DNA of 64,000 bases from an uncultured Acidimicrobiia bacterium. Its GTDB lineage: Bacteria > Actinomycetota > Acidimicrobiia > Acidimicrobiales > AC-14. The stretch lies in assembly GCA_963790325.1 (NCBI GenBank), contig CAWBNY010000004.1, positions 4,210 through 68,209 on the forward strand, given 5' to 3'. Positions 12,486-34,813 of the stretch are shown here, piece after piece; position 1 is the first letter of the stretch, and the number at the start of each line of letters is the position of its first letter. The position numbers and the translations under genes are program-made. The notes under the pieces were generated by a model that had not been told where the DNA came from, ran no database searches, and saw only the letters and a program-made list of their open reading frames with translations.

Positions 12486-12745
12486 CGGTCTGGGCTATCT
12501 CGGCCTCGTTGATTTGGTACTGCACGCGGTCAGTCGTCCTCGCCCGCTGTGATCTCGTGCGGGTCAACGACCGGGTGCTGAGTCTCGCTGGCAGGCTGCT
12601 CCCGCCCGAGCTTCGATCTCTCGTCGCCATTCATCTCGCCACCGCCGAGCGCCTTCGTGGCGAGGTCGGCGAGCTCGTCATCTACGACGAGCGCATGGCG
12701 GCCGCCGCCCGTCAGCTCGGGCACCGAGTGTTCGCGCCCGGATAG
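12486..12745 (+). pseudogene. PIN-domain (VapC-like) toxin, C-terminal remnant
   Basis: LRSLVAIHLATAERL...LVIYDERMAAAARQLGHRVFAPG matches the C-terminal half of VapC toxins. The N-terminal catalytic Asp region, a start codon and an antitoxin are all absent. Confidence 0.5.
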
Positions 12746-12888
12746 CGGAGACTCGCCACTCGCTGCCATCGGGTCACCGCGCTGCGGATCGCCCCACGCC
12801 ATCGCCCGCGCGTGCCCGTCCGGCAACGCCGGGGGTTCGATGGCTGGGAGCACCGCCGCCAGGTGGCCGCCCGGCAACGGGCAACCGC

Positions 12889-13860
12889 TCAGTCCCTTCG
12901 GCGCAGACCCGTGACCGGATCGGTGGCCAGGTCGATCACCACGGTCCCCACGCGCCGACCTCCGGCCGTCACCGACACCCGCCCGGTCCGATCCAACCCG
13001 CCCACCACCGCCGCCTCGATGCCGCGGGCGTGGAACGGGCGGAGGCAGTCGTCCTCCCGGCCGGGGGGGACGCACAGGAGGAAGGCGAAGCACGGGAAGC
13101 ACGTCAGCCACCGGGTGAGGTCCACACCGGCCGGCGCAGGCAAAAGGTCGAGGTCGACGGTGACGCCCAGGCGGTTGGCTTCCAACAGCATCCCGAGCGA
13201 CCCGAGGAGGCCGGCCATGCTCACGTCCTTGGCGGCCACGCATGACCCGTCCGCCGCGACCTGGGCGAGGAGGCGGACGTCGGCGGCCAGGCCGGTGCCC
13301 CGCTCGTCGAAGGAGCGGAAGAAAGGGAAGTCGTCCCGCATGGAGCCGGCGGTGACGGCGGCCACCACCAGGCTCTGACCGGCGGCGGCCCGGGTCATCG
13401 ACAGGGCCGGACCGCCGCCCACCAGCCGCCCCAGGCCGAACGCGGACAGCGCCGGCGGGCCGTCGTGGAGGGTGAGATGGCCGCCCACGACGGGCACGTC
13501 GTACAGCCGGCCGGCGTCGCGCATGCCCTCCAGCGCCAGGCGGGCGACCTCGGCCGAGGCCACCACCGTGTCGACGATGGCCAGCGGCACCGCCCCCATG
13601 GCGGCCAGGTCGTTGACGTTGGCCAGCACCGCGGCCACGCCCGCCCCGTAGGGATCGGCCGCCACCAAGCCGGGGAGCATCGCCTCGCCCCCCACCACCA
13701 GGTCGCCACCGACCAGAGCCCCGTCGTCGCCCGGGCCGGTGAGCCAGTCCGTTCCCCCGAAGACCTCCGACACCACCGCGATGGGCGCCTTGTTGCGCAA
13801 CCCCGGATGGGCCCGCACCGCGGCCGCCAGCGCCTCCAAATCTTGCACTAAAGTAGACAC
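12889..13860 (-). CDS. AIR synthase-related (PurM/ThiL/HypE-fold) ATP-utilising protein
   Basis: The PurM-like N domain shows GPGDDGALV...LANVNDLAAMGAVPLAIVDT, and the C domain shows KDVSMAGLLGSLGMLLE. I chose the GTG at 13860, which follows GGTAGAGAG. The longer ORF in the track is upstream read-through. Confidence 0.8.
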   Translation of the reverse strand: MSTLVQDLEALAAAVRAHPGLRNKAPIAVVSEVFGGTDWLTGPGDDGALVGGDLVVGGEAMLPGLVAADPYGAGVAAVLANVNDLAAMGAVPLAIVDTVVASAEVARLALEGMRDAGRLYDVPVVGGHLTLHDGPPALSAFGLGRLVGGGPALSMTRAAAGQSLVVAAVTAGSMRDDFPFFRSFDERGTGLAADVRLLAQVAADGSCVAAKDVSMAGLLGSLGMLLEANRLGVTVDLDLLPAPAGVDLTRWLTCFPCFAFLLCVPPGREDDCLRPFHARGIEAAVVGGLDRTGRVSVTAGGRRVGTVVIDLATDPVTGLRRRD

Positions 13861-13878
13861 CTCTCTACCATAGGATGC

Positions 13879-14658
13879 GTGGTTGCTCCGTTCCCGCTCG
13901 ATCTCCCGGAGCGGTCGACCAAGCCCCGCCGGGTGGGGCTCACCCACGTGCTCGACAAGGGTCTCACGCCCGGCCAGGTGACCGACCGGCTGGCCACGTG
14001 CGGGACCTACGTCGACGTGTGGAAGTTCGGCTGGGGCACCGCCTACGTGGACCCCATGGTGGAGGCCAAGCTCGCCGTCCTCGACCAGCACGCCGTGCTC
14101 GGCTGCCTGGGGGGCACCCTTCTCGAGGTGGCCTGGAGCCAGCGGCGGGCCGACGACCTCCTCGACTGGGCCGCCGGGGCCGGCTTCCCGTGCGTCGAGG
14201 TGTCCCGGGGGGCGGCGCCCATGAGCGTCGCCGACAAGCACGACCTCATCCGGGTGGCGGCGTCGGGGTTCACCGTGCTGTCCGAGGTGGGGGCCAAGAG
14301 CCGCACCGCCCGGATGGCGCCCGGGGACTGGGCCGACGAGGTGGCGGGCGATCTGGCCGCCGGCGCCCGGTGGGTCATCGCCGAGGGCCGGGAGAGCGGG
14401 ACGGTGGGCGTCTTCAACGACGACGGCAGCGTGCGGGAGGACGTGGTGACGGCGGTGGTGGGTGCCGCCGGCGGGGTCGAGCGGGTCGTGTTCGAAGCAC
14501 CCCGCAAGGACCAGCAGGCGTGGTTCATCCGCCGCTTCGGGAGCGAGGTCAACCTGGCCAACGTCGCCGTCACCGAGGTCATGGGCCTGGAGACGCTGCG
14601 CCTGGGGCTGCGGGCCGACACCATCGACCTGTCGGTCGGTCGCCTGCCGGTCCGCTAG
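13879..14658 (+). CDS. comA: (2R)-phospho-3-sulfolactate synthase (ComA/XcbB family)
   Basis: KPRRVGLTHVLDKG...YVDVWKFGWGTAY...GGTLLEVA...GFPCVEVSRG...VLSEVGAK follows the ComA family pattern. Confidence 0.85.
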   Translation: MVAPFPLDLPERSTKPRRVGLTHVLDKGLTPGQVTDRLATCGTYVDVWKFGWGTAYVDPMVEAKLAVLDQHAVLGCLGGTLLEVAWSQRRADDLLDWAAGAGFPCVEVSRGAAPMSVADKHDLIRVAASGFTVLSEVGAKSRTARMAPGDWADEVAGDLAAGARWVIAEGRESGTVGVFNDDGSVREDVVTAVVGAAGGVERVVFEAPRKDQQAWFIRRFGSEVNLANVAVTEVMGLETLRLGLRADTIDLSVGRLPVR

Positions 14659-14660
14659 CG

Positions 14661-15536
14661 GTGGCCAACCTCGTCCCCGGCCAGTACCGGAAGGTGTCGG
14701 TGGCGACGGTGGACGTCCCGCTGACGGTCGATGGCCTGACCAGCCACTTCCTCGGTCGGGAGGTCTACCGGGCGACCCGCTTCGTGGTGGTCCGGCGGGG
14801 GGACGACGCGGCCGTGGTCGAGGTCGATCACGCCGAGGACGGGCTGTTCGCACCGGTGAAGGCGGTGGAGGTCCTGGCCTTGCCGGCCGACTGTGACTAC
14901 GTGGTCGCGCCCGAGGTCGACACCGCCATCCCGTCGGCTCTGGCCGCCATCGCCTCCGGCGCCCGCTGCGTCGTGGTCGAGGGTCGCTACCGGCACGTGA
15001 GCTTCATCCTCGACCCCCGGCCCATCCGCATCCGGGTGGGCGACGTGGTGCCGCCGGGGCCGGCCAAGCTCCTCGACCAGGCCCGGCGGGTGCTGGCCGT
15101 GGCCGAGGACCTGCCGCCCGTCGAGCTGGTGCCGGACGTCGTCGACCTGGTCGATCTGGCCGCCGACCATCCGGCGCCGCGCTATCTCCTGCCGTGCCGA
15201 GGGTCGGGGATCGCGGTGGGGGGAGCGGCGGTCGACTTCCTCGACCAGCACCCCGAGCGGGGCGACTGGACCCTGCTCGGCTGCGCCCGGTCCCGAGCCA
15301 TCCACGAGTGGTTCTACGGCGACGTCCCGCCGACGGTGGACACCTGCCCCCGGCGCCTCTTCTCCGGCCGAGGTCTAAGCGACCGCCCGCTGCTCACCAA
15401 GTGCTGCCTGCTGGAGGACCGCAACCTCGACGAGCCGGGGGTGGCGGTGGTGCCGTGGGGCGCCTCCCTCGACCTGGTGCGGCGGGCACTGACCGCCCTG
15501 ACCACCGCCGAGGACCCGACGTGGGCGCCCGCCTGA
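14661..15536 (+). CDS. hypothetical protein (291 aa), embedded in the sulfonate operon
   Basis: It is in frame with near-saturated GC3. A GTG lies 2 nt after the comA stop, and its 3' end overlaps the next gene by 16 nt. No family was recognised. The C-terminal half is Cys-containing (CPRR...TKCC). Confidence 0.6.
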   Translation: MANLVPGQYRKVSVATVDVPLTVDGLTSHFLGREVYRATRFVVVRRGDDAAVVEVDHAEDGLFAPVKAVEVLALPADCDYVVAPEVDTAIPSALAAIASGARCVVVEGRYRHVSFILDPRPIRIRVGDVVPPGPAKLLDQARRVLAVAEDLPPVELVPDVVDLVDLAADHPAPRYLLPCRGSGIAVGGAAVDFLDQHPERGDWTLLGCARSRAIHEWFYGDVPPTVDTCPRRLFSGRGLSDRPLLTKCCLLEDRNLDEPGVAVVPWGASLDLVRRALTALTTAEDPTWAPA

Positions 15537-16882
15537 CCGACTCCGCTCTCTACGCCCACCTGTGGGGGACTGACGAGCTGCGGGCCGTGTTCGACGAACG
15601 CGCTCGGCTCCAGGGATGGCTCGACGTGGTGGCGGCGTTGGCCCGGGCCCAGGCCAAGCTCGGGATCGTCCCCCCCGAGGCGGCCGACGCCATCACCGAG
15701 CTGGCCACGGTCGACCGCCTCGACCTCGACTTCGTGGCCGCCGAGACCCGGCGCACGTCCCACTCCACCCTCGGCCTGATCCACGGCCTGCAGCGGGTGC
15801 TGCCCCCCGAGGCGGCCGGGCACGTGTACGTGGGCACCACCGTCCAGGACGTCACCGACACGTGGACGGTGCTCGCCCTGCGGGAGGTGGGGCGGGTGGC
15901 ATGGCGCGACCTGCGCATCGTCGAGGGCCTCCTCCTCGACCTGGCCGAGCGCCACCGGGACACGGTCATGGTCGGGCGGACCCACGGCCAGCCGGGGTCG
16001 CCGATCACGTTCGGGTACAAAGCCGCCTCGTGGGCGGACGAGGTCCGCCGCCACCTCGACCGGCTGGCCGAGGGCCGGCCCCGGTGGCTGGTCGGCCAGC
16101 TGGGCGGGGCCGTCGGCGTCCTCGGCTACTTCGGGGCCGACGGGCCGGCCCTTCGATCCGCCTTCTGCACCGAGCTCGATCTCGACGATCCGGCGATCTC
16201 GTGGCTGACGGCGAGGGACCGGCTGGCAGAGGCGGCGTCGGTGTTCGCCCTGGTCACGGGCACCTTGGCCCGCATCGGCAACGAGGTCCTCGAACTGCAG
16301 CGGCCCGAGATCGGCGAGCTGGCCGAGCCCACCACGGCCGACGTCGTGGGCAGCATCACCATGCCCCACAAGCGCAACCCGGAGCGCAGCGAGCACCTCG
16401 ACACCCTGGCCCGGCTGGTGCGGGCCAACGCCGCCGTCCTCGTCGAGGGCGTGGCCCAGCTCCACGAGCGGGACGGGCGGGCGTGGAAGGCGGAGTGGGT
16501 GGCGTTCCCCGAGGTGTGCCTGCTCACTGGAGTCGCCCTGCGGACCGCGATCGAGCTGCTCACCGGCCTCGAGGTCGACGGCGAGGCGATGGCCCGCCGG
16601 GTCGGGCAACGGGACGAGGCGGGCTCGGAGCGGGTGCTGGCCGTCCTCACCGCCCGCCTCGGCCGCCACCCGGCCCGGGAAGCGCTCCACCGGGCCCTCC
16701 GACCGGGCTCCGCCGGAACACCGTCTCTGGCCGACGCAGTCGTCGCCGAAGGCCTCCTCACCGCCGACGAGGTCGCCCGCCTGCTCGCCGAGCCGGCCGT
16801 CGAGGGGGCCGTGGCCATGGTCGACGAGGTCGTCCGCCGGGGTCGCGCCGCCCGGGCCGGCGACCCGTCGGCGTGGGCCTGA
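15521..16882 (+). CDS. aspartase/fumarase-superfamily lyase, adenylosuccinate lyase/CMLE-like (XcbC-like candidate)
   Basis: Contains LYAHLWGT, TVQDVTDT and the superfamily signature loop GSITMPHKRNPERSEHL. Confidence 0.85.
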   Translation: MGARLTDSALYAHLWGTDELRAVFDERARLQGWLDVVAALARAQAKLGIVPPEAADAITELATVDRLDLDFVAAETRRTSHSTLGLIHGLQRVLPPEAAGHVYVGTTVQDVTDTWTVLALREVGRVAWRDLRIVEGLLLDLAERHRDTVMVGRTHGQPGSPITFGYKAASWADEVRRHLDRLAEGRPRWLVGQLGGAVGVLGYFGADGPALRSAFCTELDLDDPAISWLTARDRLAEAASVFALVTGTLARIGNEVLELQRPEIGELAEPTTADVVGSITMPHKRNPERSEHLDTLARLVRANAAVLVEGVAQLHERDGRAWKAEWVAFPEVCLLTGVALRTAIELLTGLEVDGEAMARRVGQRDEAGSERVLAVLTARLGRHPAREALHRALRPGSAGTPSLADAVVAEGLLTADEVARLLAEPAVEGAVAMVDEVVRRGRAARAGDPSAWA

Positions 16883-16955
16883 CCCGGTGGTCCATGCGCT
16901 GGCCGTCCGGACCGGTGACACTGCGGGGGTTCACCAGTCCGAACGGAGACCTCCC

Positions 16956-17954
16956 GTGACCGTCAGCCCCGCCCTGGCCACCGCCGCTGCGCTGCCCCGA
17001 CTGCTCCTGGCCAACCTGCCCACGCCCCTCGTGGAGGCGTCGCGGCTGACCCACGCCCTCGGTGGCCCACCCATCCACGTCAAGCGCGACGACCTCGCCG
17101 GCTTCGGCCTGGCCGGCCACAAGGCCCGCCAGCTCGAGTTCCTGGTGGGGGCCGCCCTCGACCAGGGCTGCGACGTGATGGTCACCGGTGGCGGGCCCAG
17201 CTCGAACTTCTGCGCCGCGGCCGCGGCGGCGGCGTCGGCCGCCGGCCTCGACTGCCACCTCGTCCTCTACGGGGCCGAGCCGGAGCAGACCCATCCCAAC
17301 CTGGCCGTGGCCCAGGCGTGCGGAGCGGTCGTGCGCTACACCCGCGACCCGTCGCGGTCGTCGGTCGACGCCCGGGTGGTGGAGGTGGCGGAGGCGCTCA
17401 CCGCCGGCGGGCGGCAGCCCTTCGCCATGCCCCGGGGCGGCGCCACCGCCCTGGGCACGGTGGGGATGGTGCTCGGCGTGGAGGAGCTGGCCGCCCAGCT
17501 GGACGAGGCGGGCATCGAGCCGGCCATGGTGGTCATCGCCACCGGCTCCGGCGCCGCCTGCGCCGGCCTGACCCTGGGGGCGTCGCTGTGCGGGCGGTCG
17601 TGGCGGGTGGTGGGCGCCTCGGTGAGCCGGCCCGGGGAAGAGGTCGTGCAATCGGTGCAGACGCTCGCCGCCGAGTGCGCCGAGCTGCTCGGTGTCGAGA
17701 CCCCGCCCGGGCTCAGCCTGGAGCTGGCCGACGCCCGTGGTCCCGGATTCGGCGTCCCGTCGGCCGACGGCGAGTCGGCCGCCCGGGTGGCGCTGCGCAC
17801 CGAGGGCCTCGTCCTCGACCCGGTGTACACGGCCAAGGCCCTGGCCGTCCTCCTCCGCCTGCTCGACCCGGGGTCGAAGCAGCCGGTAGTTTTCTGGCAC
17901 ACCGGCGGGCTCCTGGGGGCGGCCCACCACCTGGCGGGAGGCGGCGAGGAGTGA
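16956..17954 (+). CDS. PLP-dependent enzyme of the ACC deaminase/D-cysteine desulfhydrase family (XcbE-like candidate)
   Basis: Contains PTPLVEASRL...HVKRDDLAGFGLAGHKARQLEFLV (the PLP-Lys motif) and the glycine loop TGGGPSSNF. I chose the GTG at 16956, which follows GGAGA; the ORF track start is 16887. Confidence 0.85.
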   Translation: MTVSPALATAAALPRLLLANLPTPLVEASRLTHALGGPPIHVKRDDLAGFGLAGHKARQLEFLVGAALDQGCDVMVTGGGPSSNFCAAAAAAASAAGLDCHLVLYGAEPEQTHPNLAVAQACGAVVRYTRDPSRSSVDARVVEVAEALTAGGRQPFAMPRGGATALGTVGMVLGVEELAAQLDEAGIEPAMVVIATGSGAACAGLTLGASLCGRSWRVVGASVSRPGEEVVQSVQTLAAECAELLGVETPPGLSLELADARGPGFGVPSADGESAARVALRTEGLVLDPVYTAKALAVLLRLLDPGSKQPVVFWHTGGLLGAAHHLAGGGEE

Positions 17955-17956
17955 AC

Positions 17957-18013
17957 GGTGGCGGTGGCGGGGTGGTGGTGGTGGTGGTGGTGGCGGTGGC
18001 GGTGGCGGTGGCG
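17957..18013 (+). repeat. (GGT/GGC)n trinucleotide microsatellite, A-free, in the intercistronic spacer
   Basis: The sequence ggtggcggtggcggggtggtggtggtggtggtggtggcggtggcggtggcggtggcggc fills the spacer between the stop at 17954 and the GTG at 18031. Confidence 0.95.
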
Positions 18014-18030
18014 GCCCGGCCCGGGAGCTG

Positions 18031-19464
18031 GTGGAGTCCGGCTTCACCCTGGAGAACGCCGACGCACCCCTCCTGCACCAGGGCCTCAACCTGGCCGACA
18101 TCGCCCACGTCATCGACCTCCGGGGTCGGCGGGTGGTCCCCGAGGACGCCGCCCGCCAGCTCCTCGACCTGCTGCTCGAGGTCCACGGCATGCCGGCCGA
18201 GGAGTTCCCCTACGACCCGTCCTTCGGCGAGGCCTACAACTCCCGGGAGCGGTACTTCGCCTCCCGGCTGGGCGACGTGGCCGGGTGGCTGCACGCCGGG
18301 CGGCCCCGGCGGGAGGCCACCCGCATGGCCCTGCGGCTGCTCCTCCGGCGCCAGCTGGTCGACCTGGTGGAGGACGCGGCCGGCTTCGTCGACAGCGTGG
18401 TCAGTCAGGCGGCGGCCCACCTGGGCACGCTCATGCCCGACCAGACGTACCTCCAGCAGGCCCAGCCGTCGACGTTCGGCCACTACGTCCTGTCCTTCGC
18501 CTACCCGACGGCGCGGGACGCGGCCCGCCTGGTCGACTGCATCGAGTGGGTGAACCTGTCGCCCGGCGGGGCCGGCTGCGTCAACGGGAGCCGGCTGCTG
18601 GAGGACCGGTCGGTGATCGCCGGGCTGCTGGGCTTCGGCGGGGTCATCGAGCACACCCGGGACGCGATGTGGCAGGTGGACGGCCTGATCAACATCCTGG
18701 CCACCACCGCCAGCATGCTGTCCAACCAGTCCAAGCTGGCCGAGGACCTGGAGATCTGGTCGTCGAGCGAGTTCGACTACGTCGACCTCGACGACGGTTT
18801 CACCCGGTCGAGCGTCCTCATGCCGAACAAGCGGAACCCCTACGCCCTGTCGATCGTGCGGGGGGCCTCGGGGATCCTGATCGGGCGGCTGGCGGGGTTC
18901 CTGGCCGTGGTCAAGAGCCCCTCCGCCCGCAGCGACAACCTCATCTTCGCCTACGGCGAGGTCCCCCGGGCCCTCGACCTGGCGTCGCGGACGACCCGCC
19001 TGATGGCCGGGGTGGTGCGCACCCTGCGGGTCAACCGCCAGCACATGGCCGACGCCCTGACGGCCGGCTTCACCCAGGCCACCGACCTGGCCGAGCACAT
19101 CGTCCAGGTGTGCCGCATCGACTACCGCACCGCCTACGTGATCGTGGGGGCGACGGTGCGGGCGGCGGCCGCGGTCGGGTTGCGGGGCGTCGACATCACC
19201 GGCGAGATGCTCGACAACGCGTCCGTCGAGCACCAGGGCCGGCCCCTCGGGCTGGCCGGCCACGACCTCTCGGCGGTGCTCGACCCGATGCGCATCGTGT
19301 CCAGCCGCTCGGCCACCGGCGGGGCCGCGCCCGAGGCGGTGGGGGGGATGGTGGCCACCTGCCGGGAGTCGGCGTCGTCGCTGCACGCCGAGGCCGACCG
19401 CTGGCGGGACTCGTTCGACTGCGCCGAGGCGGCGCTGCTCAAGCTGGCGGAGGAGACGGCGTGA
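18031..19464 (+). CDS. aspartase/fumarase-superfamily lyase, argininosuccinate lyase-like (XcbD-like candidate)
   Basis: Contains TYLQQAQPSTFGHY and the signature loop SSVLMPNKRNPYALS. No in-frame start exists between the stop at 17887 and 18028/18031. Confidence 0.85.
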   Translation: MESGFTLENADAPLLHQGLNLADIAHVIDLRGRRVVPEDAARQLLDLLLEVHGMPAEEFPYDPSFGEAYNSRERYFASRLGDVAGWLHAGRPRREATRMALRLLLRRQLVDLVEDAAGFVDSVVSQAAAHLGTLMPDQTYLQQAQPSTFGHYVLSFAYPTARDAARLVDCIEWVNLSPGGAGCVNGSRLLEDRSVIAGLLGFGGVIEHTRDAMWQVDGLINILATTASMLSNQSKLAEDLEIWSSSEFDYVDLDDGFTRSSVLMPNKRNPYALSIVRGASGILIGRLAGFLAVVKSPSARSDNLIFAYGEVPRALDLASRTTRLMAGVVRTLRVNRQHMADALTAGFTQATDLAEHIVQVCRIDYRTAYVIVGATVRAAAAVGLRGVDITGEMLDNASVEHQGRPLGLAGHDLSAVLDPMRIVSSRSATGGAAPEAVGGMVATCRESASSLHAEADRWRDSFDCAEAALLKLAEETA

Positions 19465-20849
19465 CCCGGGTGGAGCTGCCGACCGAGGTGTCGGTGGTCA
19501 ACCTGGGGCTGGCGCTGTTCGCCGATGCCATCCGGGACCAGGGCCGGCCCGTCCTCCATGTCGACTGGCGCATCCCGGCCGGAGGCGACCTGGCGCTGGT
19601 GGCGGCGCTGACCCGGCTGTACGGGCGGCACGGGGCGGCGGTCGACGCGGCCAATGCCGAGGTCGTGCGCCGGCTGGACACCGGGGTGCCGCGGCTGGTC
19701 GGGATCGCGCCGGCCGGCGACGTGGTGCCGGGGATGGGCGAGCGCACCATCCTCCACTGCGGGCCGGCCATCGGGTGGGACGACATGGGCGAGCCGCTGC
19801 GCAACTCGGTGCGGGCGGCGGTGCGGGCCGAGGGGTGGGACCCGGCGGGCGGCGACGACGAGGTCGACCTGGAGCCGGCCAACCACCACTCGGCGGTCGT
19901 GCCCATGGCCACCGCCATGGGGCCGTCGACGCCCGTGTTCGTGGTCGAGATGGAGGGCCTCCGCTCGTTCTCGCCCATCAACCAAGGCCCGGGCGAGGTG
20001 GCCTGGTTCGGGCGGGACACCCCGGCCGCCGTCGACCGGCTCGTCTTCCTGCGGGACGTGGCCGGCCCCCTGCTGGCCTCGGTGGTGGCGGCGGCCGGCC
20101 CGCTGGATCTGATGGCGGTGGCGGCCCAGGGCCTGCAGATGGGCGACGACCTGCACATGCGCACCCAGGCCGCCACCAACCTCCTGCTGCGGACCTGGCT
20201 CCCCCACCTCATGGGCCTGGAGCCGGCCGCCCGGTCCGAGCTCGGGGGCTTCCTCGCCGGGAACCACCTGTTCTTCCTGAACCTGGCCATGGCCGGGGCC
20301 AAGGCGCTGACCCTGTGGGCCGAGCAGGTGCCGGGCGCCAGCGTGGTCACCACCATGGCCCGCAACGGGACCGCCTACGGCGTCCGGCTGCCGGGGTCGC
20401 CGGAGTGGTTCGTGACCGGCTCGCCGCCGGTCGGCGACGCCTTGTTCCACCCCGGCCGGTCGGCCGACGACGCCGCCCCCGACATCGGCGACTCGGCGGT
20501 GCTGGAGCTGATCGGGCTGGGCGGGTGCGCGGCGGCGGGCTCGCCGGCGGTGGCGGCCTTCGTGGGGGGAACGATGGCCGACGCGGTCGCGACCACGGAG
20601 GACATGGACCGGGTGTGCGCCGGGCGGAGCAGCCGGTTCAGGCTGCCCATCCTCGACTTCCGGGGCACGCCGGTGGGCGTCGACGTGCGCAAGGTGGTCG
20701 AGCTCGGCATCACGCCCAAGGTCACCACCGGCATCCTCCACGCCGGTGACGGGGGCCAGATCGGCGCCGGGGTGGCGCACGGCCCGATCGCCTGCTTCCG
20801 CGACGCCCTCCTCGATCTCGACCGCCGCCTCGATCGCCGCCTCGGGTGA
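19461..20849 (+). CDS. DUF1116-family protein (YlbE-like)
   Basis: The GTGA overlap with the upstream stop couples the two genes. The length and the motifs HHSAVVPMA, GDDLHMRTQAAT and MARNGT...DSAV.E..GLGG resemble the YlbE/DUF1116 family. This call is from memory of the family and was not searched. Confidence 0.7.
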   Translation: MTRVELPTEVSVVNLGLALFADAIRDQGRPVLHVDWRIPAGGDLALVAALTRLYGRHGAAVDAANAEVVRRLDTGVPRLVGIAPAGDVVPGMGERTILHCGPAIGWDDMGEPLRNSVRAAVRAEGWDPAGGDDEVDLEPANHHSAVVPMATAMGPSTPVFVVEMEGLRSFSPINQGPGEVAWFGRDTPAAVDRLVFLRDVAGPLLASVVAAAGPLDLMAVAAQGLQMGDDLHMRTQAATNLLLRTWLPHLMGLEPAARSELGGFLAGNHLFFLNLAMAGAKALTLWAEQVPGASVVTTMARNGTAYGVRLPGSPEWFVTGSPPVGDALFHPGRSADDAAPDIGDSAVLELIGLGGCAAAGSPAVAAFVGGTMADAVATTEDMDRVCAGRSSRFRLPILDFRGTPVGVDVRKVVELGITPKVTTGILHAGDGGQIGAGVAHGPIACFRDALLDLDRRLDRRLG

Positions 20850-21631
20850 CCGTCGAAGTCGGCGCCGGTGCCCACCGGACGCTGGCGGTCGACGGGCGGG
20901 GGCAGGTGGTGGGCGTCTACCGCCACGCCGCCCATCTCCGCCTGCCGGCAGGGATGGTGGCGGTGGTCACGCCCCAGGTGGGGCGGGGCCCGCTCCACGT
21001 GCGCGGCCCGGTGCGGCCCGAGCTCCTCGCCCCCGGCGACCGGGTCGACGTGGTGGGCGGCGCTTCGCTGCGCGTGGCGACGGCGGTTGAGGTCGACCTG
21101 GCCGCGGCCCGGGTGTGGCGGGGGGCGCTGCCCGAGCCATCGACGTTGGCCGGTGCCGACTTGAACGTCTTCGCCGCCGCCCCTCCGTCGGCGTTGGTCG
21201 ACCCGGTCCACGCCGACCGGCTGGCGGTGGCCGTCCACCGCCTCGACCACGACGACCTGGCGGGTGCGGCCCGGGCCATCGGCGGGCTGGGTCCGGGTCT
21301 GACCCCGTCGGGCGACGACGTCCTGGCCGGGATCCTTCTCGTCCGGCGGGCGCTCCGGGGACCGGCGGCGGAGTCGGGGTTGGTCGCCGTCGCCCGCGCC
21401 GTGCGGACCACCTCGTTGTCGCGGGAGGTCCTGGTGTGGGCCGCCCGGGGCCAGGCGGTGGAGCCCGTCCACGACCTCCTGGGCTCGGTGGCGGCCGGCG
21501 ACCGGGCCGCCGCCGACACCGCCCTGGCGCACGTGGTCGCCCTCGGCCACTCGTCCGGTGCCGACCTCGCCCTCGGCCTCGCCCTCGGACTGGGACTGCG
21601 TCTCGGGGTTGCCCGAACGGGGTACCGGTGA
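20846..21631 (+). CDS. DUF2877-family protein (YlbF-like)
   Basis: It overlaps the upstream stop (GTGA). GLGPGLTPSGDDVLAGILL and the C-terminal ALGHSSGADL are characteristic DUF2877 motifs. Confidence 0.7.
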   Translation: MTVEVGAGAHRTLAVDGRGQVVGVYRHAAHLRLPAGMVAVVTPQVGRGPLHVRGPVRPELLAPGDRVDVVGGASLRVATAVEVDLAAARVWRGALPEPSTLAGADLNVFAAAPPSALVDPVHADRLAVAVHRLDHDDLAGAARAIGGLGPGLTPSGDDVLAGILLVRRALRGPAAESGLVAVARAVRTTSLSREVLVWAARGQAVEPVHDLLGSVAAGDRAAADTALAHVVALGHSSGADLALGLALGLGLRLGVARTGYR

Positions 21632-28903: not shown

Positions 28904-29845
28904 CTAGCCGCTGGCGCCCTCCGGGGACGGCTCGGGCTTGTTCCGGCCCAGGTCGCAGCCGTTCTCCTCGAGGAACGCCTGGATGGCGGCCCGCTCCTCA
29001 CGGCTGAGGCGGCGCTGGGCGCCCTGGGGCGGCTGCGGGGGGATGGGGTAGCCGAGCATCGACGCCATGACGACGACCACCCGGTCGTAGCGTCCGAGGT
29101 CGTCCACCCAGTCCTGGGCCTTCGTCTCCCAGTAGTGGTTGCGGGTGGTGGTGTAGCTGTCGAGCTCGCCCTGGATGGTGCGGGCCTGCCCGGCCAGCAG
29201 CCCGAGGTGCTTGCGCGTCTGCTCGGCGGGATCCTCCTCGTCCTCCTCCGGCTCGTCGCCGACCAGGGCGCCGGTGCCGAGGGGATCGCGTCCGGTGAGC
29301 GCCAGCAGCTCGGTCTGCCGGTCGATGGAGACCGGGACCTTCACCGCCGGTCCGAACGCCCCCGCCTCCCGCCACATGTCGGCCTGGGGGGCGAGGTACC
29401 CCAGGGCGAAGTCGACCAGGTCGGGGTCGAGGTGCTCGTCCCCGCCGGTGGCCCGGGCCAGGTCCCAGGTGTGGACGACATGGTCGGTGGTGATCTGGGC
29501 CAGGTAGTCCTCGCCGGTGATGTCGCCGAACGACACGTGCACCACCCGCAGCGGGACGTCGTCGTCGTGGCAGGCGGCGAGCGCGGCCACCGCCACGTCG
29601 GTCCAGGCCGACCACGGGTCGTCGCCGACCTGGTCGCCGTCGAACCGGTTGCCCACCTCGGCGATCGTCTCCCCCGCCAGCAGGGGCGGGACCCACTGGT
29701 TCTCGTTGACGACGTGGTTGAGCAACGCCTTCACGTCCCACTCGGCGTTGGGCGTGGGCAGCGACAGCTGGTCCTTGGACACCGCCCGCACGCGGGCGCC
29801 GAACTCGTCGACCGCCCGCCGGTACAACCCGATCACGTCGGCCAT
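28904..29845 (-). CDS. DinB/mycothiol-maleylpyruvate-isomerase N-terminal-domain protein with about 110-aa C-terminal extension
   Basis: PTPNAEWDVKALLNHVV.EN.W...ITTDHVVHTWDLARATG follows the pattern of the actinobacterial DinB-like (TIGR03086-type) family. Confidence 0.7.
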   Translation of the reverse strand: MADVIGLYRRAVDEFGARVRAVSKDQLSLPTPNAEWDVKALLNHVVNENQWVPPLLAGETIAEVGNRFDGDQVGDDPWSAWTDVAVAALAACHDDDVPLRVVHVSFGDITGEDYLAQITTDHVVHTWDLARATGGDEHLDPDLVDFALGYLAPQADMWREAGAFGPAVKVPVSIDRQTELLALTGRDPLGTGALVGDEPEEDEEDPAEQTRKHLGLLAGQARTIQGELDSYTTTRNHYWETKAQDWVDDLGRYDRVVVVMASMLGYPIPPQPPQGAQRRLSREERAAIQAFLEENGCDLGRNKPEPSPEGASG

Positions 29846-29861: not shown

Positions 29862-30422
29862 CTATGTGATTACCACCTCCGTGTCGCTCAACGCACGAAT
29901 CGTGTTGGAGACGTAGCAGACCCGGGACGCGTGGGCCGCCAGCTGCTCCAGCTCCTCCCGGGGATGGCCGGACGTGACCTCCACCCGGACGTGGGTGAAC
30001 CTGGGGCCGTCGTAGGTGCCCACCGCCCGCACCGCGATGTCGGGCAGCTCGATTCCCCGCTTGCGGGCCACGTGGGCCAGGGCCAGGGTGAAGCACGAGG
30101 CGAGGGAGGCGAGGAACAGCTCGGTGGGCTGGGGCCCGGTGTCGTCGCCGCCCGACTTGAGCGGCTCGTCGACCCGGATCTCGAATTCCCGGGCCCTGAC
30201 CCGGCACCGGTACCCACCGTCCCAGGTGGCCTCGACCGAGAGCTCAGCCGTGCGAGTGGTCCCCGTGGTCGTGGCCGGCCGGGCGCCGGGCCAGGCCCAT
30301 CGCCCGGTGGTCGATCTCGGCCGCCGACACCAAGCCGCCGGCGGCCAGCACCGACTCCAGCGCCGCCAGCCAGCAGTGGTAGTAGCTCCAGGGCACTGCC
30401 ACAAGGTCCGAACTGGTGACAT
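29862..30422 (-). CDS. OsmC/Ohr-family protein (start uncertain)
   Basis: The OsmC core GGDDTGPQPTELFLASLASCF...VCYVSNT begins near 30250. The only canonical in-frame starts are at 30410 and 30422, inside the upstream gene. Confidence 0.65.
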   Translation of the reverse strand: MSPVRTLWQCPGATTTAGWRRWSRCWPPAAWCRRPRSTTGRWAWPGARPATTTGTTRTAELSVEATWDGGYRCRVRAREFEIRVDEPLKSGGDDTGPQPTELFLASLASCFTLALAHVARKRGIELPDIAVRAVGTYDGPRFTHVRVEVTSGHPREELEQLAAHASRVCYVSNTIRALSDTEVVIT

Positions 30423-30654
30423 CTTCGGTCGCCGGGGCCACAGGATCTGTCACCAGTTCGGGGTCGGGCCAGCCGGCGATGGTGGCGATCAGCTCCTGGC
30501 GGAAGTCCTCCCAGTCGAACGCGCCGGCGGCGTGCAACGCCAGCGCCAGTCCGAACGCCCGGCTCTCCCAGGGCTCGGCGAAGACCAGCTCCCCGTTGCT
30601 CCGGGGGGGCGAGGCGGGGCCGTAGACGTCGAGGACGCCGACGGTCGCGCTCAC
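30244..30654 (-). CDS. nitrile hydratase accessory (activator) protein, beta-subunit-homologue type
   Basis: It overlaps the alpha subunit stop (GTGA). [18 protein letters not shown]... is the beta-like N-terminal motif. The C-terminal tail is His-rich (HDHGDHSHG). Confidence 0.8.
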
Positions 30655-31253
30655 GAGGGCGACGGCACCCGGGCCACGCCCACCATGGCGTCGCGGGTGA
30701 CGAGGGCGGCCAACTCGTCCTCGGCCAGGCCGTCGGTGCCGGCAGGGCGCTCGGGGAGCACCATGTAGCGCACCTCCGACGACGAGTCCCACACCTGGAT
30801 GTCGACGCCGGCGGGCACGTCGAGGCCCATCTCGGCCAGCAGGGTGCGGGGCTCGCGCACCATCCGCGACCGGTAGGCGGGGTCCTTGTACCAGGCCGGC
30901 GGCAGTCCGAGAACCGGCCACGGGTAGCAGGAGCACAGGGTGCACACCACCACGTGGTGGGTGCCGGGCGTCTGCTCCAGAACCACGATGTGCTCGCCCT
31001 GGGGGCCCTTGAAGCCCATCTCGGCGATGGAGCCGGTGCCGTCGGCCAGCAGGCGGGCCTTGTACTCGGGGTCGGACCAGGCGTGGGCCACGACCCTGGC
31101 CCCGTTCATGGGGCCGACGTTCTCCTCGTAGTTCTTGATGAACCCGTCCATCACCTTGGGGTCGACCAGGCCCCGCTCGACCAGGATCGACTCCAGGGCC
31201 TCGGTGCGCAGGGCGATGGGCAGGCGCTCGGCGTCGGTGTCGCTCACGCTCAT
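30651..31253 (-). CDS. nthA: nitrile hydratase alpha subunit, cobalt type
   Basis: The metal-binding motif is [15 protein letters not shown]. The Thr and Tyr variants indicate the Co type. The ATG at 31253 overlaps the beta subunit stop (ATGA). Confidence 0.92.
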
Positions 31254-31918
31254 GACGGGGCAGCCTCCAGGTAGGACTCGTACAGGTCGATGGTGACGGT
31301 GAACGGCTCGGCACCGTCGCCCCACAGCTCGGCCGAGTCAAAGACGACCGCGTACACGTGCTGGGGGTTCTCGCCCAGGAAGTGGGCGTTGGTCTCGGGC
31401 AGCACCATGGCCGGCTGGACCAGGCGGACCTCGCCCGTCCGGCCCCGCACGTACCGGGGCAGGCGGGTGTGGCCGGAGGGGTGGATGTCCTTCGCCCGCA
31501 CCCGGTCACCGGGTTCGAAGGCGGGCGGGGTTTCGACCGGGCGGATGGAGCCGGCGGCGGTGGGCTTGTAGTCGGGCTTGTTGGGCTCGGGGACGGGCGG
31601 CTCCTCCACGTCCTCCCCCCGCAGCTTCCTGGCCCGGGCGTCGACCGCCCCCGGGGCGATGATCGAGCTGTCGGTGAGCAGGTTCTCGGCCATCTTCAGC
31701 CACCGGCCGTAGTACCCGAAGGCGAGGTAGTCGATGGGGTGCTGGCGGTTGAGGGCGTGGCGGAACGAGTCGAGGTTGGTGCCCGACACCCGCATCGAGA
31801 GCAGGGCCATGGCGAAGGCCCGCCGCTCCCAGTCCTCGTGGAAGGGCGGGTCGTCGGGCGGCGTCAGCCGCACCGACCCGAAACCCTGCAGGCCGCCCAT
31901 GTCGGCGACGGTGTCCAA
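31250..31918 (-). CDS. nthB: nitrile hydratase beta subunit
   Basis: Contains GGLQGFG..., [22 protein letters not shown] and ENPQHVY.V.F. The TTG at 31918 is preceded by GGAGG plus a 6-nt spacer. Confidence 0.9.
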
Positions 31919-31991
31919 GGTTGACCTCCTCCTCGAAGGCGGAGCGCCGCGCCCGGCCGGCGGTGCCGGGCGCGGCTGCTCCAGGACTGGC

Positions 31992-32480
31992 TCAGACGGT
32001 CCAGGTGTTGATCTGGAAGGCACCCGCCCGCCAGGCGGTGAGGGCCGAGTCGAGCACGTCGAGGGGGTGGAACGGGGTGACGCCGTCGATGAGGTCGTCC
32101 TCCCGGAACCCGTAGAGGGCGCCCATGGCGAAGCGGCAGGCGTACACCTTGGCTCCCTCCCGCAGAAGGGTCTTGATCTGGTTGTTGATGGCCATGTGGC
32201 CGGGAAAGGCCTCCTGGCCGACGGCGGGGAAGCCCCGGGTGCCGGAGGCGAGGAGCACGCCCGGGCCGTAGAGGACGATGCTCACGTCGAAGCCCTTGCG
32301 CACCAGCCGGGTCGACGTCAACAGGTTCACCAGGGCCACCGACCCCTCGTAGGGGACGGTGTGGATGAAGACGAAGGCCTTCTCCCCCGGGTTGGCCTTG
32401 ATGTCCTCGAACAGCTTCTCGTCGGTGTTGAACAGGACCTCGCCGTCGGCGGGCCGCTCATTGTTGACGGTCTTCGGCAT
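31992..32480 (-). CDS. DsrE/DsrF-like small protein (assignment tentative)
   Basis: The protein is 162 aa with a strong Shine-Dalgarno sequence (GAGGAGAG). The pattern FVFIHTVPYEG...VLYGPGV...KVYACRFAMG suggests the DsrE-like fold. This is a low-certainty call made by eye. Confidence 0.55.
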   Translation of the reverse strand: MPKTVNNERPADGEVLFNTDEKLFEDIKANPGEKAFVFIHTVPYEGSVALVNLLTSTRLVRKGFDVSIVLYGPGVLLASGTRGFPAVGQEAFPGHMAINNQIKTLLREGAKVYACRFAMGALYGFREDDLIDGVTPFHPLDVLDSALTAWRAGAFQINTWTV

Positions 32481-32489
32481 CTGCTCTCC

Positions 32490-32807
32490 TCAGCTCTCAC
32501 TCGCGGGGGTCTCGGGGTCTTTGCTGTCTGACATCGGTGGTGCGACCGGCCCCACCGCGGGTGTCCCCCGCACCGGCGATCGGGTCCAGGTCTGGCGGTG
32601 GCTGCCGGGCATGAGCTGGATCGTCATCCGCCGCAGCCTCCATGGCAGCCGCCGGTAGGTCGGGGCGAACAGCCCCAGCCAGAACTGCTCGCGCCAGCCC
32701 TTCGGTGCCGACGGTGGCTCCCGGCCGTAGCGGGCGGCGACGCGCCGCTGGGCGTCGACCATGAGGTAGTGCTCCGAGTTCTGCCGCAGCCAGCGGGCGA
32801 AGCCCAT
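32490..32807 (-). CDS. small hypothetical protein (105 aa)
   Basis: It is packed tightly between its neighbours (1-nt and 9-nt gaps). The N-terminal 60 aa are Trp/Arg-rich. No family was recognised. Confidence 0.5.
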   Translation of the reverse strand: MGFARWLRQNSEHYLMVDAQRRVAARYGREPPSAPKGWREQFWLGLFAPTYRRLPWRLRRMTIQLMPGSHRQTWTRSPVRGTPAVGPVAPPMSDSKDPETPASES

Positions 32808-32808
32808 G

Positions 32809-34143
32809 TCACAGGGCCGCCAGGGCGTTCTGGGCCGCCACCGAGATGGGCTCGTTGAGGGCGCCGATCGGGGGCGAGTACACGTTCTCCATGGTGGCCA
32901 GGTCGCGCAGGGTGATCCCCGTCTTGACCGCCATGCCCAGGAAGTCGGCCCGCTCCTTGATCCCCTCGCCGCCCACCATCTGGGCCCCGATGAGGCGCAG
33001 GCTCCCCGGTTCGGCCAGCAGCTTGACCCGGATCTTCTTGACCCCCGGGTAGTAGCGGGCCCGGGAGATCCCGTTGGCCACCCCCAGCACGTGGGGGATG
33101 CCGAGGGCGGTGGCCAGGGTCTCGCCGAAGGAGACCCCGCCGATCATCCACTTGCCCGCCACCATCCCCCATGGGACGTAGACCGGCTGGTAGGCCCGCC
33201 TGCCGCCGGCGGCGTTGGTGCCCGCCACCTTGCCCTGGGCGTAGGCGTGGCTGCCGGAGAGCCCCTGGATGGGGAGGTTGCTGACCCCGTGGGGAAGCTC
33301 GGCGCAGTCGCCGGCGGCGTAGACGTCGGGGTGGGAGGTGCCCATGCGCTCGTCGACCACGATCCCGCCGGTGGAGCCGGTCCGGATGCCGGCGGACGAG
33401 GCCAGGCGGGCGTTGGGCTGCTTGTGGGTGCAGACCACGACCAGGTCGGCGGGGAGGTCGCCTCCGTCGGTCCTGACCGCCTTGACATGGCCGTCGTCGT
33501 CGCCCACGAAGGCCCGGGCGGGGGTGTTCCAGTGCATCTTCACGCCCATCTCGGCCCACGACTCCTCCACCGGGGCGGCGATGTCGGGGTCGGCCGCCTC
33601 GGCCAGGGCCCACGGCGCCTTGTCGACCAGGTGGGTCTCGATCCCCCGATGGGCGAGGGCGGTGACCATCTCCAGGCCCAGGGGCGAGGCCTCCACCACC
33701 ACCGCCACCTTGACCGTGTCGAGGACCTTGTCCCACTCCATGGCCCGGCGGATGTTCTTGACGTAGTAGAGGCCCTGGAGGTCGGTGCCGGGGACGCCGG
33801 GGTCGGCGTAGTCGAAGCCGGTGCCGAGGATCAGGCGGTCGAAGCCCTCGTCGCCCTCACCTTCGATCGTGATCCGCTTCTGGTTGACGTCGAGGCCGGT
33901 GACCCGGGTGTCGTAGTGGATGTCGATGCCGTTCTCCTGGTACGCCTCCTTGGTGGCCAGGAAGAGGCGCTCGAAGTCGGGGATCTCCTTGCCGTGGACG
34001 TAGGGGATGCCGCACGGGCTGTAGGCCGCGTCCTCGTACTCGGTGTAGACGGTGACCTGGGCGCCGCGATCGGTAGCCTTGGCCGCGCCGGCCGCTCCGA
34101 TGCCGGCGGCGCCGCCGCCCACAACCACGATCCTCTGGCCCAA
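32809..34143 (-). CDS. FAD-dependent pyridine nucleotide-disulfide oxidoreductase, single-Cys CoA-disulfide reductase/NADH oxidase type
   Basis: Contains the FAD motif VVVGGGAAG, the active-site context YSPCGIPY, a second Rossmann fold (VAVVVEASPLGLE), AAGDCA and a C-terminal dimerisation domain. The track start is a TTG; an alternative GTG at 34128 follows AGAGGA. Confidence 0.9.
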   Translation of the reverse strand: MGQRIVVVGGGAAGIGAAGAAKATDRGAQVTVYTEYEDAAYSPCGIPYVHGKEIPDFERLFLATKEAYQENGIDIHYDTRVTGLDVNQKRITIEGEGDEGFDRLILGTGFDYADPGVPGTDLQGLYYVKNIRRAMEWDKVLDTVKVAVVVEASPLGLEMVTALAHRGIETHLVDKAPWALAEAADPDIAAPVEESWAEMGVKMHWNTPARAFVGDDDGHVKAVRTDGGDLPADLVVVCTHKQPNARLASSAGIRTGSTGGIVVDERMGTSHPDVYAAGDCAELPHGVSNLPIQGLSGSHAYAQGKVAGTNAAGGRRAYQPVYVPWGMVAGKWMIGGVSFGETLATALGIPHVLGVANGISRARYYPGVKKIRVKLLAEPGSLRLIGAQMVGGEGIKERADFLGMAVKTGITLRDLATMENVYSPPIGALNEPISVAAQNALAAL

Positions 34144-34160
34144 GGCGTTTACTATACTGG

Positions 34161-34168
34161 ACGTACGT
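34161..34168. promoter_or_regulatory. ACGTACGT palindrome in AT-richer divergent promoter region
   Basis: A perfect 8-bp palindrome sits within tttactatactggacgtacgttt, between the oxidoreductase operon and the XRE-cupin gene. Confidence 0.2.
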
Positions 34169-34195
34169 TTCCCACGCTGTCAAGGAGGCGCCAAG

Positions 34196-34813
34196 TTGAC
34201 GGATCTGAGCGAGCCCATCACGGCGGAGGAAGGCGCTGGCCAGTCGTCCGTCGATCGCATCGTGGGGGCGATCGGGCCCCGGCTGCGAGAGCTGCGCCTG
34301 CAACGAGGGCTGTCGTTGCAGCAGCTGGCCGAGCGGGCCGGGGTGTCGGCGGCGGCCATCCACAAGATCGAGCGCAGCGGCATGGTCCCCACCATCACCA
34401 CCCTGCTGAAGCTGGCCGACGCCTTCGACCGCCCGGTGGGGTGGTTCGTCGACGAGGACGCGCCCACCGCCGGCCCGGTGGCCTTCACCGCGGCCGGGGC
34501 CCGGCCGCAGGCGTTCAGCCCCCAGCCGGGGGTCGAGCTGGCCACCGTCTCGGGGTCCTACGCCCGGTTCCTCCTGGACGCGGCCGTCGCCACCGTCGAG
34601 CCCGGCGCCGGCAGCGGCCCGGCCGACGACGAGCGCCAGGGTGAGGAGTTGGTCTTCGTGCTCGACGGGGTGCTCGACTTCGATGTCGACGGCCACCCGT
34701 ACCGGCTGGAGCCGGGCGACGCCCTCCACCTGCGCACCGACCGTCCCCACCGATGGGAGAACGGCGGGCACCGGCCGGCGCAGGCCCTGTGGGTGACCGT
34801 CCGCCCCCTGTAG
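34196..34813 (+). CDS. XRE-family HTH regulator with C-terminal cupin domain
   Basis: The HTH is LRLQRGLSLQQLAERAGVSAAAIHKIERS, and the cupin region is GEELVFVLDG...GDALH. The TTG start follows AAGGAGG. Confidence 0.85.
   Translation: MTDLSEPITAEEGAGQSSVDRIVGAIGPRLRELRLQRGLSLQQLAERAGVSAAAIHKIERSGMVPTITTLLKLADAFDRPVGWFVDEDAPTAGPVAFTAAGARPQAFSPQPGVELATVSGSYARFLLDAAVATVEPGAGSGPADDERQGEELVFVLDGVLDFDVDGHPYRLEPGDALHLRTDRPHRWENGGHRPAQALWVTVRPL

Follow-up and report, generated by a model that had tools for sequence, protein, structure and literature searches.

The DNA analysed here is a 64-kb window from the genome of an uncultured bacterium of the Acidimicrobiia (Actinomycetota; GenBank assembly GCA_963790325.1, contig CAWBNY010000004.1), and all positions given below are numbered within this window. 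The genes studied lie between 29862 and 34813, where open reading frame (ORF) listing and family scans confirmed eight genes, all at the places given in an initial annotation made from the sequence. They encode a regulator with XRE-type and cupin domains, a flavoprotein resembling coenzyme A-disulfide reductase (CoADR), a small basic protein, a DsrE-like protein, the beta and alpha subunits of a cobalt-type nitrile hydratase (NHase), an NHase accessory protein and an OsmC-like protein (Table 1). We refer to the flavoprotein, small-protein and DsrE-like genes as the trio, and to the last four genes as the NHase module.

We propose, with a probability of roughly 60%, that the window carries one version of a large, undescribed actinobacterial relative of the Nit1C cluster (also known as gpr or nitBCDEFGH), in which the NHase is a dedicated, optional module occupying the hydrolase slot. 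No description of an NHase in this context was found in the literature searched. Nit1C was defined by Podar et al. in 2005 (PMC1199592). In Mycobacterium smegmatis the genes MSMEG_0565-0572 (gpr) are induced by GlnR more than 500-fold on nitrogen starvation, give resistance to peroxide and raise NADPH/NADP (PMC6039565), and in cyanide-assimilating Pseudomonas the NitC nitrilase of nit1C hydrolyses cyanide-derived nitriles (PMC11049912).

Table 1. Features of the locus and of the distal part of the cluster, with positions in the window.
Feature	Position	Strand	Details
XRE-family helix-turn-helix (HTH) and cupin regulator	34196-34813	+	HTH_3 and Cupin_2 matches; 205 aa
Divergent control region, 52 bp	34144-34195		Conserved TATAGTAAAC element (-10-like or operator)
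CoADR/Nox-type single-Cys flavoprotein	32809-34143	-	444 aa, TTG start; Pfam and NCBIfam matches
Small basic protein, unnamed family	32490-32807	-	105 aa; conserved in relatives
DsrE/YchN-fold protein, MSMEG_0572/Sll0783 (Nit1C ORF1, NitB) family	31992-32480	-	162 aa; TIGR04044
GC-rich hairpin	31941-31982	-	Between DsrE-like stop and NHase beta ribosome-binding site
NHase beta subunit	31250-31918	-	222 aa, TTG start; TIGR03888
NHase alpha subunit, Co-type (CTLCSCY)	30651-31253	-	200 aa; TIGR01323
NHase accessory (activator) protein	30244-30654	-	136 aa, His-rich C-terminal tail; TIGR03889
OsmC-like protein	29862 to ~30266	-	Pfam OsmC; fourth gene of NHase module
Distal supercluster part: sll0787-like AIR-synthase-like (-); ComA-, XcbE-, XcbC- and AllH-like (+)	12889-21631	-/+

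The DsrE-like protein, which the initial annotation had tentatively likened to the MSMEG_0572 family, indeed belongs there: it reaches 210 bits with the TIGR04044 model (cut-off 110), and its gene is the only copy of this family in the 3.22-Mb genome. It also exceeds the cut-off of Pfam DsrE (PF02635; 26.3 > 22.7). A sequence search of the PDB with this protein returned nothing significant (four matches only, E 0.74-0.93), and its structural model (pLDDT 87) finds DsrE, YchN, DsrEFH and TusBCD as best folds (top 3pnx, 3mc3, 1jx7 and 2hy5). Cys115-Arg116 is invariant in both variant and canonical members of the family, and in the model Cys115 lies at the end of strand 111-115, ahead of helix 116-122. 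With the sulfur carriers of the DsrE/TusD/YchN type (2hy5, 2d1p, 1jx7, 3pnx) the protein thus shares its fold (Foldseek probability 1.00, TM 0.5-0.6) and a conserved cysteine at a strand-to-helix junction; it may be a persulfide carrier, with Cys115 as a candidate for the TusD/DsrE Cys78 position. It differs from them in sequence (12-20% identity) and by an extra N-terminal segment of ~30 residues, and no DsrF/H or TusB/C partners are encoded here.

One genome per species was scanned for this protein, which yielded 266 relatives; the best 80 of the 266, 78-99% identical, were used for comparison. They come mostly from metagenome-assembled genomes of Acidimicrobiia and other Actinomycetota, and also from Planosporangium flavigriseum, Lapillicoccus, Mycolicibacterium and Dormibacterota. 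Loci were compared by targeted tblastn of the window proteins instead of a gene filter based on GC content by codon position, which missed many genes, and single-linkage clustering of ORFs, which was confounded by antisense frames. Wherever a locus extends far enough, the succession of regulator, flavoprotein, small protein and DsrE-like gene is, with hardly an exception, that of the window. More than 3 kb of downstream sequence is available for 67 of the 80 loci; in these, the NHase module is co-directional with the trio in 32, convergent and immediately downstream in 18, and absent from 17. The possibility that the arrangement is unique to this genome, which had been named beforehand as counting against the initial proposal, is thereby dismissed, since an NHase adjoins the trio in 50 of these 67 loci; a named strain with the co-directional form is P. 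flavigriseum TBRC 198 (locus L061). The NHase module is therefore optional.

The loci without NHase show what else the slot can hold. There, the DsrE-like gene is followed by a gene for a 233-aa protein, one for an Amidohydro_2 hydrolase of ~300 aa (PF04909, 62 bits) and then genes of Nit1C families, namely the MSMEG_0568 radical SAM protein (rSAM; 393 bits), MSMEG_0567 GNAT (106), an sll0787-like protein (285) and the MSMEG_0565 glycosyltransferase (GT; 365). The trio in these loci runs directly into Nit1C-family genes and is thus tied to Nit1C by physical linkage. A sequence search of the PDB with the Amidohydro_2 protein gave no match. Its gene was found in 0/50 NHase loci versus 8/17 NHase-less loci, and where the rSAM operon is visible in NHase loci (L036, L049, L060, L061, L068) the 233-aa gene abuts the rSAM gene and the Amidohydro_2 gene is missing. 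The alternation holds genome-wide: five NHase-positive genomes were without an Amidohydro_2 gene, and five Amidohydro_2-positive genomes without NHase alpha. In a tree of the flavoprotein the convergent loci group in a single clade, those with Amidohydro_2 group in two or three, and at least five gains or losses of the NHase are needed. The 233-aa protein itself (L069:7467-8165 and homologues) matches no family and keeps its place before the rSAM gene also in loci without an Amidohydro_2 gene; it did not turn up in the genome to which the window belongs.

In the canonical actinobacterial cluster of locus L099, the order is MSMEG_0572 (257 bits), a 290-aa CN-hydrolase, MSMEG_0569 (641) and rSAM (524), and ORF1 shares only 46% identity with the DsrE-like protein of the window. 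Of 301 genomes sampled evenly across the phylum, 11 have a member of the MSMEG_0572 family and 2 a member of the MSMEG_0570 family.

Other Nit1C families are present in the genome of the window, all on contig C3: MSMEG_0568 rSAM (382 > 304), MSMEG_0567 GNAT (92 > 68) and MSMEG_0565 GT (363 > 260), located near the start of that contig (C3:10155-17048, locus L083). Beside them lie an amino-acid-kinase-family gene (12005-13141) and a pyridoxal phosphate-dependent decarboxylase gene of the Orn/DAP/Arg type (15846-17048). A nitrilase of the sll0784 type (subfamily 1) is absent genome-wide, the best match (209 < 503) falling inside a distant 682-aa frame that we take to be NadE-like. This agrees with the earlier suggestion that an NHase might have displaced the nitrilase, as does the position of the NHase after ORF1.

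Within the window, the AIR-synthase-like gene that had been noted at 12889 is a real gene (12889-13902, minus strand) and scores 225 bits on the sll0787 model, under the cut-off of 321. Next to it are ComA-, XcbE- and XcbC-like genes, with scores including 240 < 280, 304 < 450 and 423 < 575, and an AllH-like gene (86 bits, AllH). The ComA- and Xcb-like genes resemble the bacterial coenzyme M pathway (PMC9457059), every match here falling short of its family cut-off. Genes within 7 kb of the trio include, across the 80 loci, an XcbC-like gene in 33, an AllH-like gene in 31, an XcbE-like gene in 20 and, in 14, the gene for a 324-aa protein encoded beside AllH. The order in compact relatives is GNAT, AIR-synthase-like, ComA, XcbE, XcbC, AllH and then the trio. 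The window keeps this order, plus the inserted NHase module and an unrelated cassette of extracytoplasmic function (ECF)-sigma and protease genes, which separates the distal part from the NHase module.

The comparison with Nit1C (PMC1199592; nitBCDEFGH, PMC11049912; gpr, PMC6039565; Synechocystis sll0783-0787) has two sides. As in Nit1C, an ORF1/NitB gene lies directly upstream of a C-N hydrolysing enzyme, the genome holds the MSMEG_0568, MSMEG_0567 and MSMEG_0565 families and, below the family cut-off, an sll0787-like gene, and a flavoprotein is paired with a protein of ~100 aa. In contrast to Nit1C, the nitrilase is replaced by an NHase here and by an Amidohydro_2 gene in sister lineages; the flavoprotein is CoADR-like and not of the COG2072/MSMEG_0569 type, and the small protein is unrelated to MSMEG_0570; the regulator is of the XRE-cupin type rather than NitA, NtcA or a GlnR-box; and coenzyme-M-type and AllH-like genes are added. 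Nor is this a compact co-directional cluster or a single operon, as the genes are spread over 12.9-34.8 kb of the window, with the foreign cassette inside, and over contig C3. The Nit1C idea of the initial annotation thus survives for the MSMEG_0572 member, is backed by the rSAM, GNAT and GT families linked to the trio in NHase-less relatives, and fails for MSMEG_0569 and MSMEG_0570; the gene order of the window also differs from that of M. smegmatis, with the ORF1-like gene preceding the hydrolase here.

The beta subunit (TIGR03888, 187 > 152), the alpha subunit (TIGR01323, 294 > 250, with the Co-type motif in its translation) and the accessory protein (TIGR03889, 66 > 46; NHase_beta_N, 51 bits) all exceed their family cut-offs, which bears out the earlier assignment of a Co-type NHase with a His-tailed activator. 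The nearest structures are 3qxe_B, a Co-type NHase, for beta and 4ob1, 3qxe, 1v29 and 1ire for alpha. On these matches the window genes encode a genuine cobalt-type nitrile hydratase. The true start of beta is the TTG at 31918 (MDTVADMGG), which follows GGAGGAGG, and not the first start codon of the frame, GTG 32023. As in Co-type NHases of Pseudomonas putida (3qxe), Bacillus/Geobacillus (1v29, 2dpp) and Pseudonocardia thermophila (1ire), alpha carries CTLCSCY, beta retains the Arg/Tyr/Trp framework residues, and the beta gene comes first, then alpha, then the accessory gene, each stop overlapping the next start (ATGA between beta and alpha; GTGA, with a GTG start, between alpha and accessory). 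Thiocyanate hydrolase (SCNase, 2dd4), a homologue of NHase, was also considered, as it acts on a sulfur-linked cyano group and the sulfur context might suggest such chemistry. It was rejected because the gamma model TIGR03887 gives 193 < 291 and because beta is here a single, unsplit subunit of 222 aa and not two.

Unlike the Co-type NHases just named, the module of the window has a fixed OsmC-like fourth gene, adjoins an MSMEG_0572-type gene and has no recognised amidase, aldoxime dehydratase or cobalt transporter partner. None of the three was recognised among the flanking frames scanned, as the initial annotation had remarked; the recognisable flanking genes were a TIGR03086 DinB-like gene and an ABC-2 permease. 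Thirteen loci in 60 relatives of this genome carry an NHase close to that of the window, with identities of at least 73% for alpha and at least 67% for beta. OsmC accompanies all 13, and the DsrE-like gene stands beside 11 of them; locus L120 ends before that position, and L123 has none in the sequence available. A second class of NHase in the same genomes, with identities of 50-68% for alpha and 33-43% for beta, has neither a DsrE-like nor an OsmC neighbour. This second, conventional NHase occurs in many related genomes (loci L124-L139). In five conventional alpha matches an in-frame TGA was considered as recoding and dismissed, these being ordinary stop codons read through by the search.

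By sequence, the NHase linked to the trio forms its own clade. Arg53, Tyr69, Trp73 and Arg152 of beta are invariant in the linked and conventional classes alike, and Arg53, Tyr69 and Arg152 presumably correspond to the residues that contact the oxidised cysteines in P. thermophila NHase. The linked class has Gly71 where conventional NHases have Glu, and an insert with invariant Gly123-Ser124-x-Arg126 (residues 120-127, 31540-31560) that conventional NHases do not have. This insert is possibly a determinant of the substrate channel.

The OsmC-like protein is confirmed by PF02566 (73 > 27.5) and by the presence of both family cysteines in its translation; every NCBIfam subfamily model stays below its cut-off. 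Its gene accompanies the NHase in both orientations. The start reads ACG (30264-30266) where most relatives have ATG, and no ATG, GTG or TTG lies near the start of the domain in the window, nor in L003, L004 or L012. As the protein is still 83-88% conserved despite the lost start, non-canonical initiation or coupling to the accessory gene is suggested. A TIGR03086 gene (DinB-like, of the mycothiol-dependent-enzyme type; 28904-29845) begins 16 nt past the OsmC stop. Only the four closest relatives likewise have it behind OsmC, so it is a lineage-specific addition to the NHase module.

In the trio, the flavoprotein matches Pyr_redox_2 (165 bits) and, as its best NCBIfam family, CoA-disulfide reductase (243 bits, far under the cut-off of 579). 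Its single redox cysteine, Cys44 in YSPCGIPY, is conserved in at least 90%, and its nearest solved structures are 6pfz (NoxA-3), 6ruz, 3cgb (CoADR) and 8a56 (CoA-persulfide reductase), in keeping with the single-Cys CoADR/NADH-oxidase type first proposed. With the single-Cys group of pyridine nucleotide-disulfide reductases (PNDR; 3cgb, 4fx9, 8a56, 3nta, 6pfz) it shares full-length homology (E 1e-47 to 1e-60), an FAD motif, a redox cysteine at the position of CoADR Cys43 and the dimerisation domain. It differs from that group in scoring far under every equivalog cut-off, in being co-encoded with a dedicated protein of ~85-105 aa, its predicted partner, and in its dinucleotide-binding region. 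There, VVVEASPLGLE aligns with the NAD(P)H-binding VIGAGFIGLE of homologous NADH oxidases and CoA-disulfide or persulfide reductases, so that the GxGxxG position reads E151-A-S-P-L-G156; Glu151, Pro154, Leu155 and Gly156 are each at least 90% conserved across 65 family members. Since the glycine motif is replaced and the replacement is itself conserved, the usual nicotinamide dinucleotide site is, on this alignment, degenerate, and the enzyme would use another partner. Cys44 notwithstanding, it falls outside CoA-disulfide reductase as the equivalog defines it. The MSMEG_0569 family, to which it had provisionally been compared, is also excluded: that model found no match anywhere in the genome at E <= 1e-3 and gave 641 bits in the L099 positive control.

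The small protein matches no Pfam or NCBIfam family, and in the protein atlas it falls into unnamed actinobacterial clusters only. It is conserved in all relatives with 42-80% identity, which marks it as a real gene. Basic and without cysteine, it carries the motifs WLRxNSEHYLL, YRRLPW and MPGSHR, and an alignment of 68 sequences has 13 invariant residues (W6, R8, L15, P49, Y51, P55, W56, P67-G-S-H-R71 and W74). The initial comparison with MSMEG_0570 does not hold: that model matches nothing in the cluster and reaches only 16 bits elsewhere in the genome, on a different contig, and two MSMEG_0570 proteins, from two actinobacterial genomes, are visibly unlike it. To judge by these family searches, the canonical MSMEG_0569/MSMEG_0570 pair (Nit1C ORF7 and ORF6) is replaced here by two non-homologous proteins.

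Complex prediction using both alignments gave ipSAE values of 0.81, 0.78 and 0.81 for the flavoprotein with the small protein, versus 0.09 for the best control; this mark is reached by 58/80 solved complexes and by 2/110 mismatched pairs. The runs share at least 90% of contacts, with a partner pLDDT of at least 72, and place the small protein on flavoprotein segments 175-187, 254-265, 281-291 and 341-350. The small protein therefore most likely binds the flavoprotein as a subunit in the predicted complex. Their genes are also close-set, the small-protein start lying 1 nt past the flavoprotein stop and the DsrE-like start 9 nt past the small-protein stop.

The two halves of the locus are separated by a covarying GC hairpin with a perfect 12-bp stem (GCCGCGCCCGGC/GCCGGGCGCGGC), a 7-nt loop, five outer pairs and no T-tract. 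An uninterrupted stem of at least 9 bp occupies the same position in 35/36 co-directional loci, with sequences that differ among lineages; many NHase-less and convergent loci also hold such a stem. A scan of 29.5-35 kb for consensus promoters and terminators found none, a hairpin without T-tract being invisible to it. Judged from the conserved hairpin and the convergent arrangement, the trio would be its own transcription unit, and one obligatory operon of trio and NHase is unlikely. The single minus-strand operon initially described is thus doubtful, and a transcriptional split, which had been named as a finding that would count against the proposal, is probable in view of the 35/36 hairpins and 18 convergent loci. 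Conserved adjacency and clade specificity nonetheless argue for a functional link between NHase and trio. The NHase module may be a semi-independent unit, reached by read-through of the hairpin or by restart after it.

The regulator is the divergent partner in nearly every locus that extends far enough upstream. The XRE-cupin assignment stands (HTH_3 59 bits, Cupin_2 60 bits); the protein is also PuuR-like (64 bits, below cut-off). Its start, read from the sequence, is the TTG after AAGGAGG, rather than that of a 253-aa ORF. In the control region, the TATAGTAAAC element lies 7 nt ahead of the flavoprotein TTG. Motifs of this type, by a pattern defined post hoc after seeing the data (NAT[AGC]GTN[AGT]A[CT]), occur within -90 to +30 of the flavoprotein start in 58/65 loci versus a shuffled mean of 1.1, and a second copy follows 20-22 nt downstream in 11 loci. 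A ACGTACGT palindrome considered earlier as operator is present in only 4/65 related control regions and was set aside in favour of this element. The four nearest relatives (L003, L004, L005, L012) have a 36-nt Shine-Dalgarno leader of the flavoprotein gene, with GAGGTGGAGGAC, that is deleted in the window, where the TTG comes 7 nt past a conserved TATAGT (compared region 34105-34160). This could mean that the start is of the leaderless type, that expression is reduced, or that the assembly is wrong here. For the leader loss and the ACG of OsmC together, non-canonical starts, early decay or assembly errors are possible.

Several of these observations, and some others, weigh against a Nit1C relative with a dedicated hydrolase module. 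Related genomes are not independent and the convergent form is one clade, so that locus counts overstate the number of events. Hairpin and convergent loci mean that the NHase need not be co-transcribed with the trio. The rSAM, GNAT and GT genes of this genome lie on another contig, and the AIR-synthase-like and Xcb-like genes are under their family cut-offs. The two damaged-looking start sites may indicate that the cluster is poorly expressed in this strain. Amidohydro_2 enzymes are not known to hydrolyse nitriles, so that alternation with the NHase need not mean the same reaction. Finally, the genome has one amidase-signature gene (C2:963430), probably gatA, and since NHase alone frees no ammonia, a simple nitrile-to-ammonia route for scavenging nitrogen is not supported.

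This last point would suit a biosynthetic role, in our view an unlikely one, in which the rSAM, GNAT, AIR-synthase-like, GT and Xcb-like genes build a nitrile compound and the NHase makes a carboxamide of it, with no ammonia released. Toyocamycin nitrile hydratase, which acts en route to sangivamycin, provides a model for such tailoring, and the cluster could make its own nitrile, since enzymes of the AIR-synthase superfamily, among them HypE, form nitriles by dehydration of carboxamides. With one amidase-signature gene and no nitrilase there is no partner amidase, and both the beta insert and a dedicated clade unlike the housekeeping NHases of the same genomes would fit a tailoring enzyme. 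However, an optional module that is swapped for an unrelated hydrolase would be odd for an essential step, and the associations of canonical Nit1C are with nitrogen starvation and the use of cyanide, not with a known product (PMC6039565, PMC11049912). We regard it as distinctly unlikely that the core is instead one of thiol-redox or peroxide defence, with the flavoprotein pair, DsrE-like and OsmC-like proteins forming a peroxide- or persulfide-reducing relay and the NHase a chemically unlinked passenger. The homologous M. smegmatis cluster does give peroxide resistance and raise NADPH/NADP (PMC6039565), the closest relatives of the flavoprotein are NADH oxidases and CoA disulfide or persulfide reductases, and the DsrE fold with its invariant cysteine and the OsmC family membership are confirmed. 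Yet OsmC accompanies the NHase and not the trio, the flavoprotein is without a normal NAD(P)H glycine motif, and the NHase clade is found only beside the trio.

Very improbable, finally, is an ordinary stand-alone NHase operon for environmental nitriles that came to lie beside an unrelated redox operon by chance or shared island history. A textbook Co-type NHase with its accessory protein and the terminator-like hairpin in front of it are what such an operon would show, but adjacency in 50 loci, in two orientations and several actinobacterial families, is not. Moreover, conventional NHases of the same genomes are without these neighbours while the linked NHase forms its own clade, the NHase and the Amidohydro_2 gene are mutually exclusive, and no amidase or aldoxime dehydratase partner was recognised.

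In the actinobacterial Nit1C relative that we favour, a fixed head, made up of the XRE-cupin regulator divergent from the flavoprotein, small basic protein and DsrE-fold protein, would be followed by an NHase module (beta, alpha, a metallochaperone-like accessory protein and an OsmC-like thiol protein) in place of the canonical nitrilase-superfamily hydrolase, with the Amidohydro_2 hydrolase there in sister lineages. The cluster would handle a specific nitrile or cyano-adduct, probably under nitrogen limitation or cyanide, and the NHase would hydrate this compound to the amide. The flavoprotein/small-protein pair and the DsrE-like cysteine protein would carry out thiol, disulfide or persulfide redox work, which may involve the coenzyme-M-type sulfonate thiol encoded nearby. 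A more specific scheme, which we consider improbable, is a thiol-cofactor pathway for cyanide or nitriles: a coenzyme-M-type thiol (ComA/XcbC/XcbE-like genes), disulfide or persulfide would capture cyanide as an S-cyano (organic thiocyanate) or sulfonated nitrile adduct, the NHase would hydrate the adduct to a thiocarbamate or amide, the DsrE-like protein would handle the sulfur and the two-subunit flavoenzyme would recycle the carrier. If this is true, Nit1C-type clusters would gain a concrete chemistry, and a new role would fall to coenzyme M in soil Actinomycetota.

Nit1C has been known as a conserved cluster since 2005 and has been linked with the assimilation of cyanide in Pseudomonas and, in mycobacteria and cyanobacteria, with the responses to nitrogen starvation and peroxide. 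The variant described here, which is widespread and not unique to this window, can be viewed as a natural experiment: it keeps ORF1, rSAM, GNAT and GT and swaps the hydrolase, the flavoprotein/small-protein pair and the regulator. Such swaps separate the indispensable parts of Nit1C from the exchangeable ones. They also supply leads: the metabolite of the cluster should be what the dedicated NHase clade acts on, the flavoenzyme is predicted to have two subunits and has a degenerate NAD(P)H site, and coenzyme-M-type genes are physically linked.

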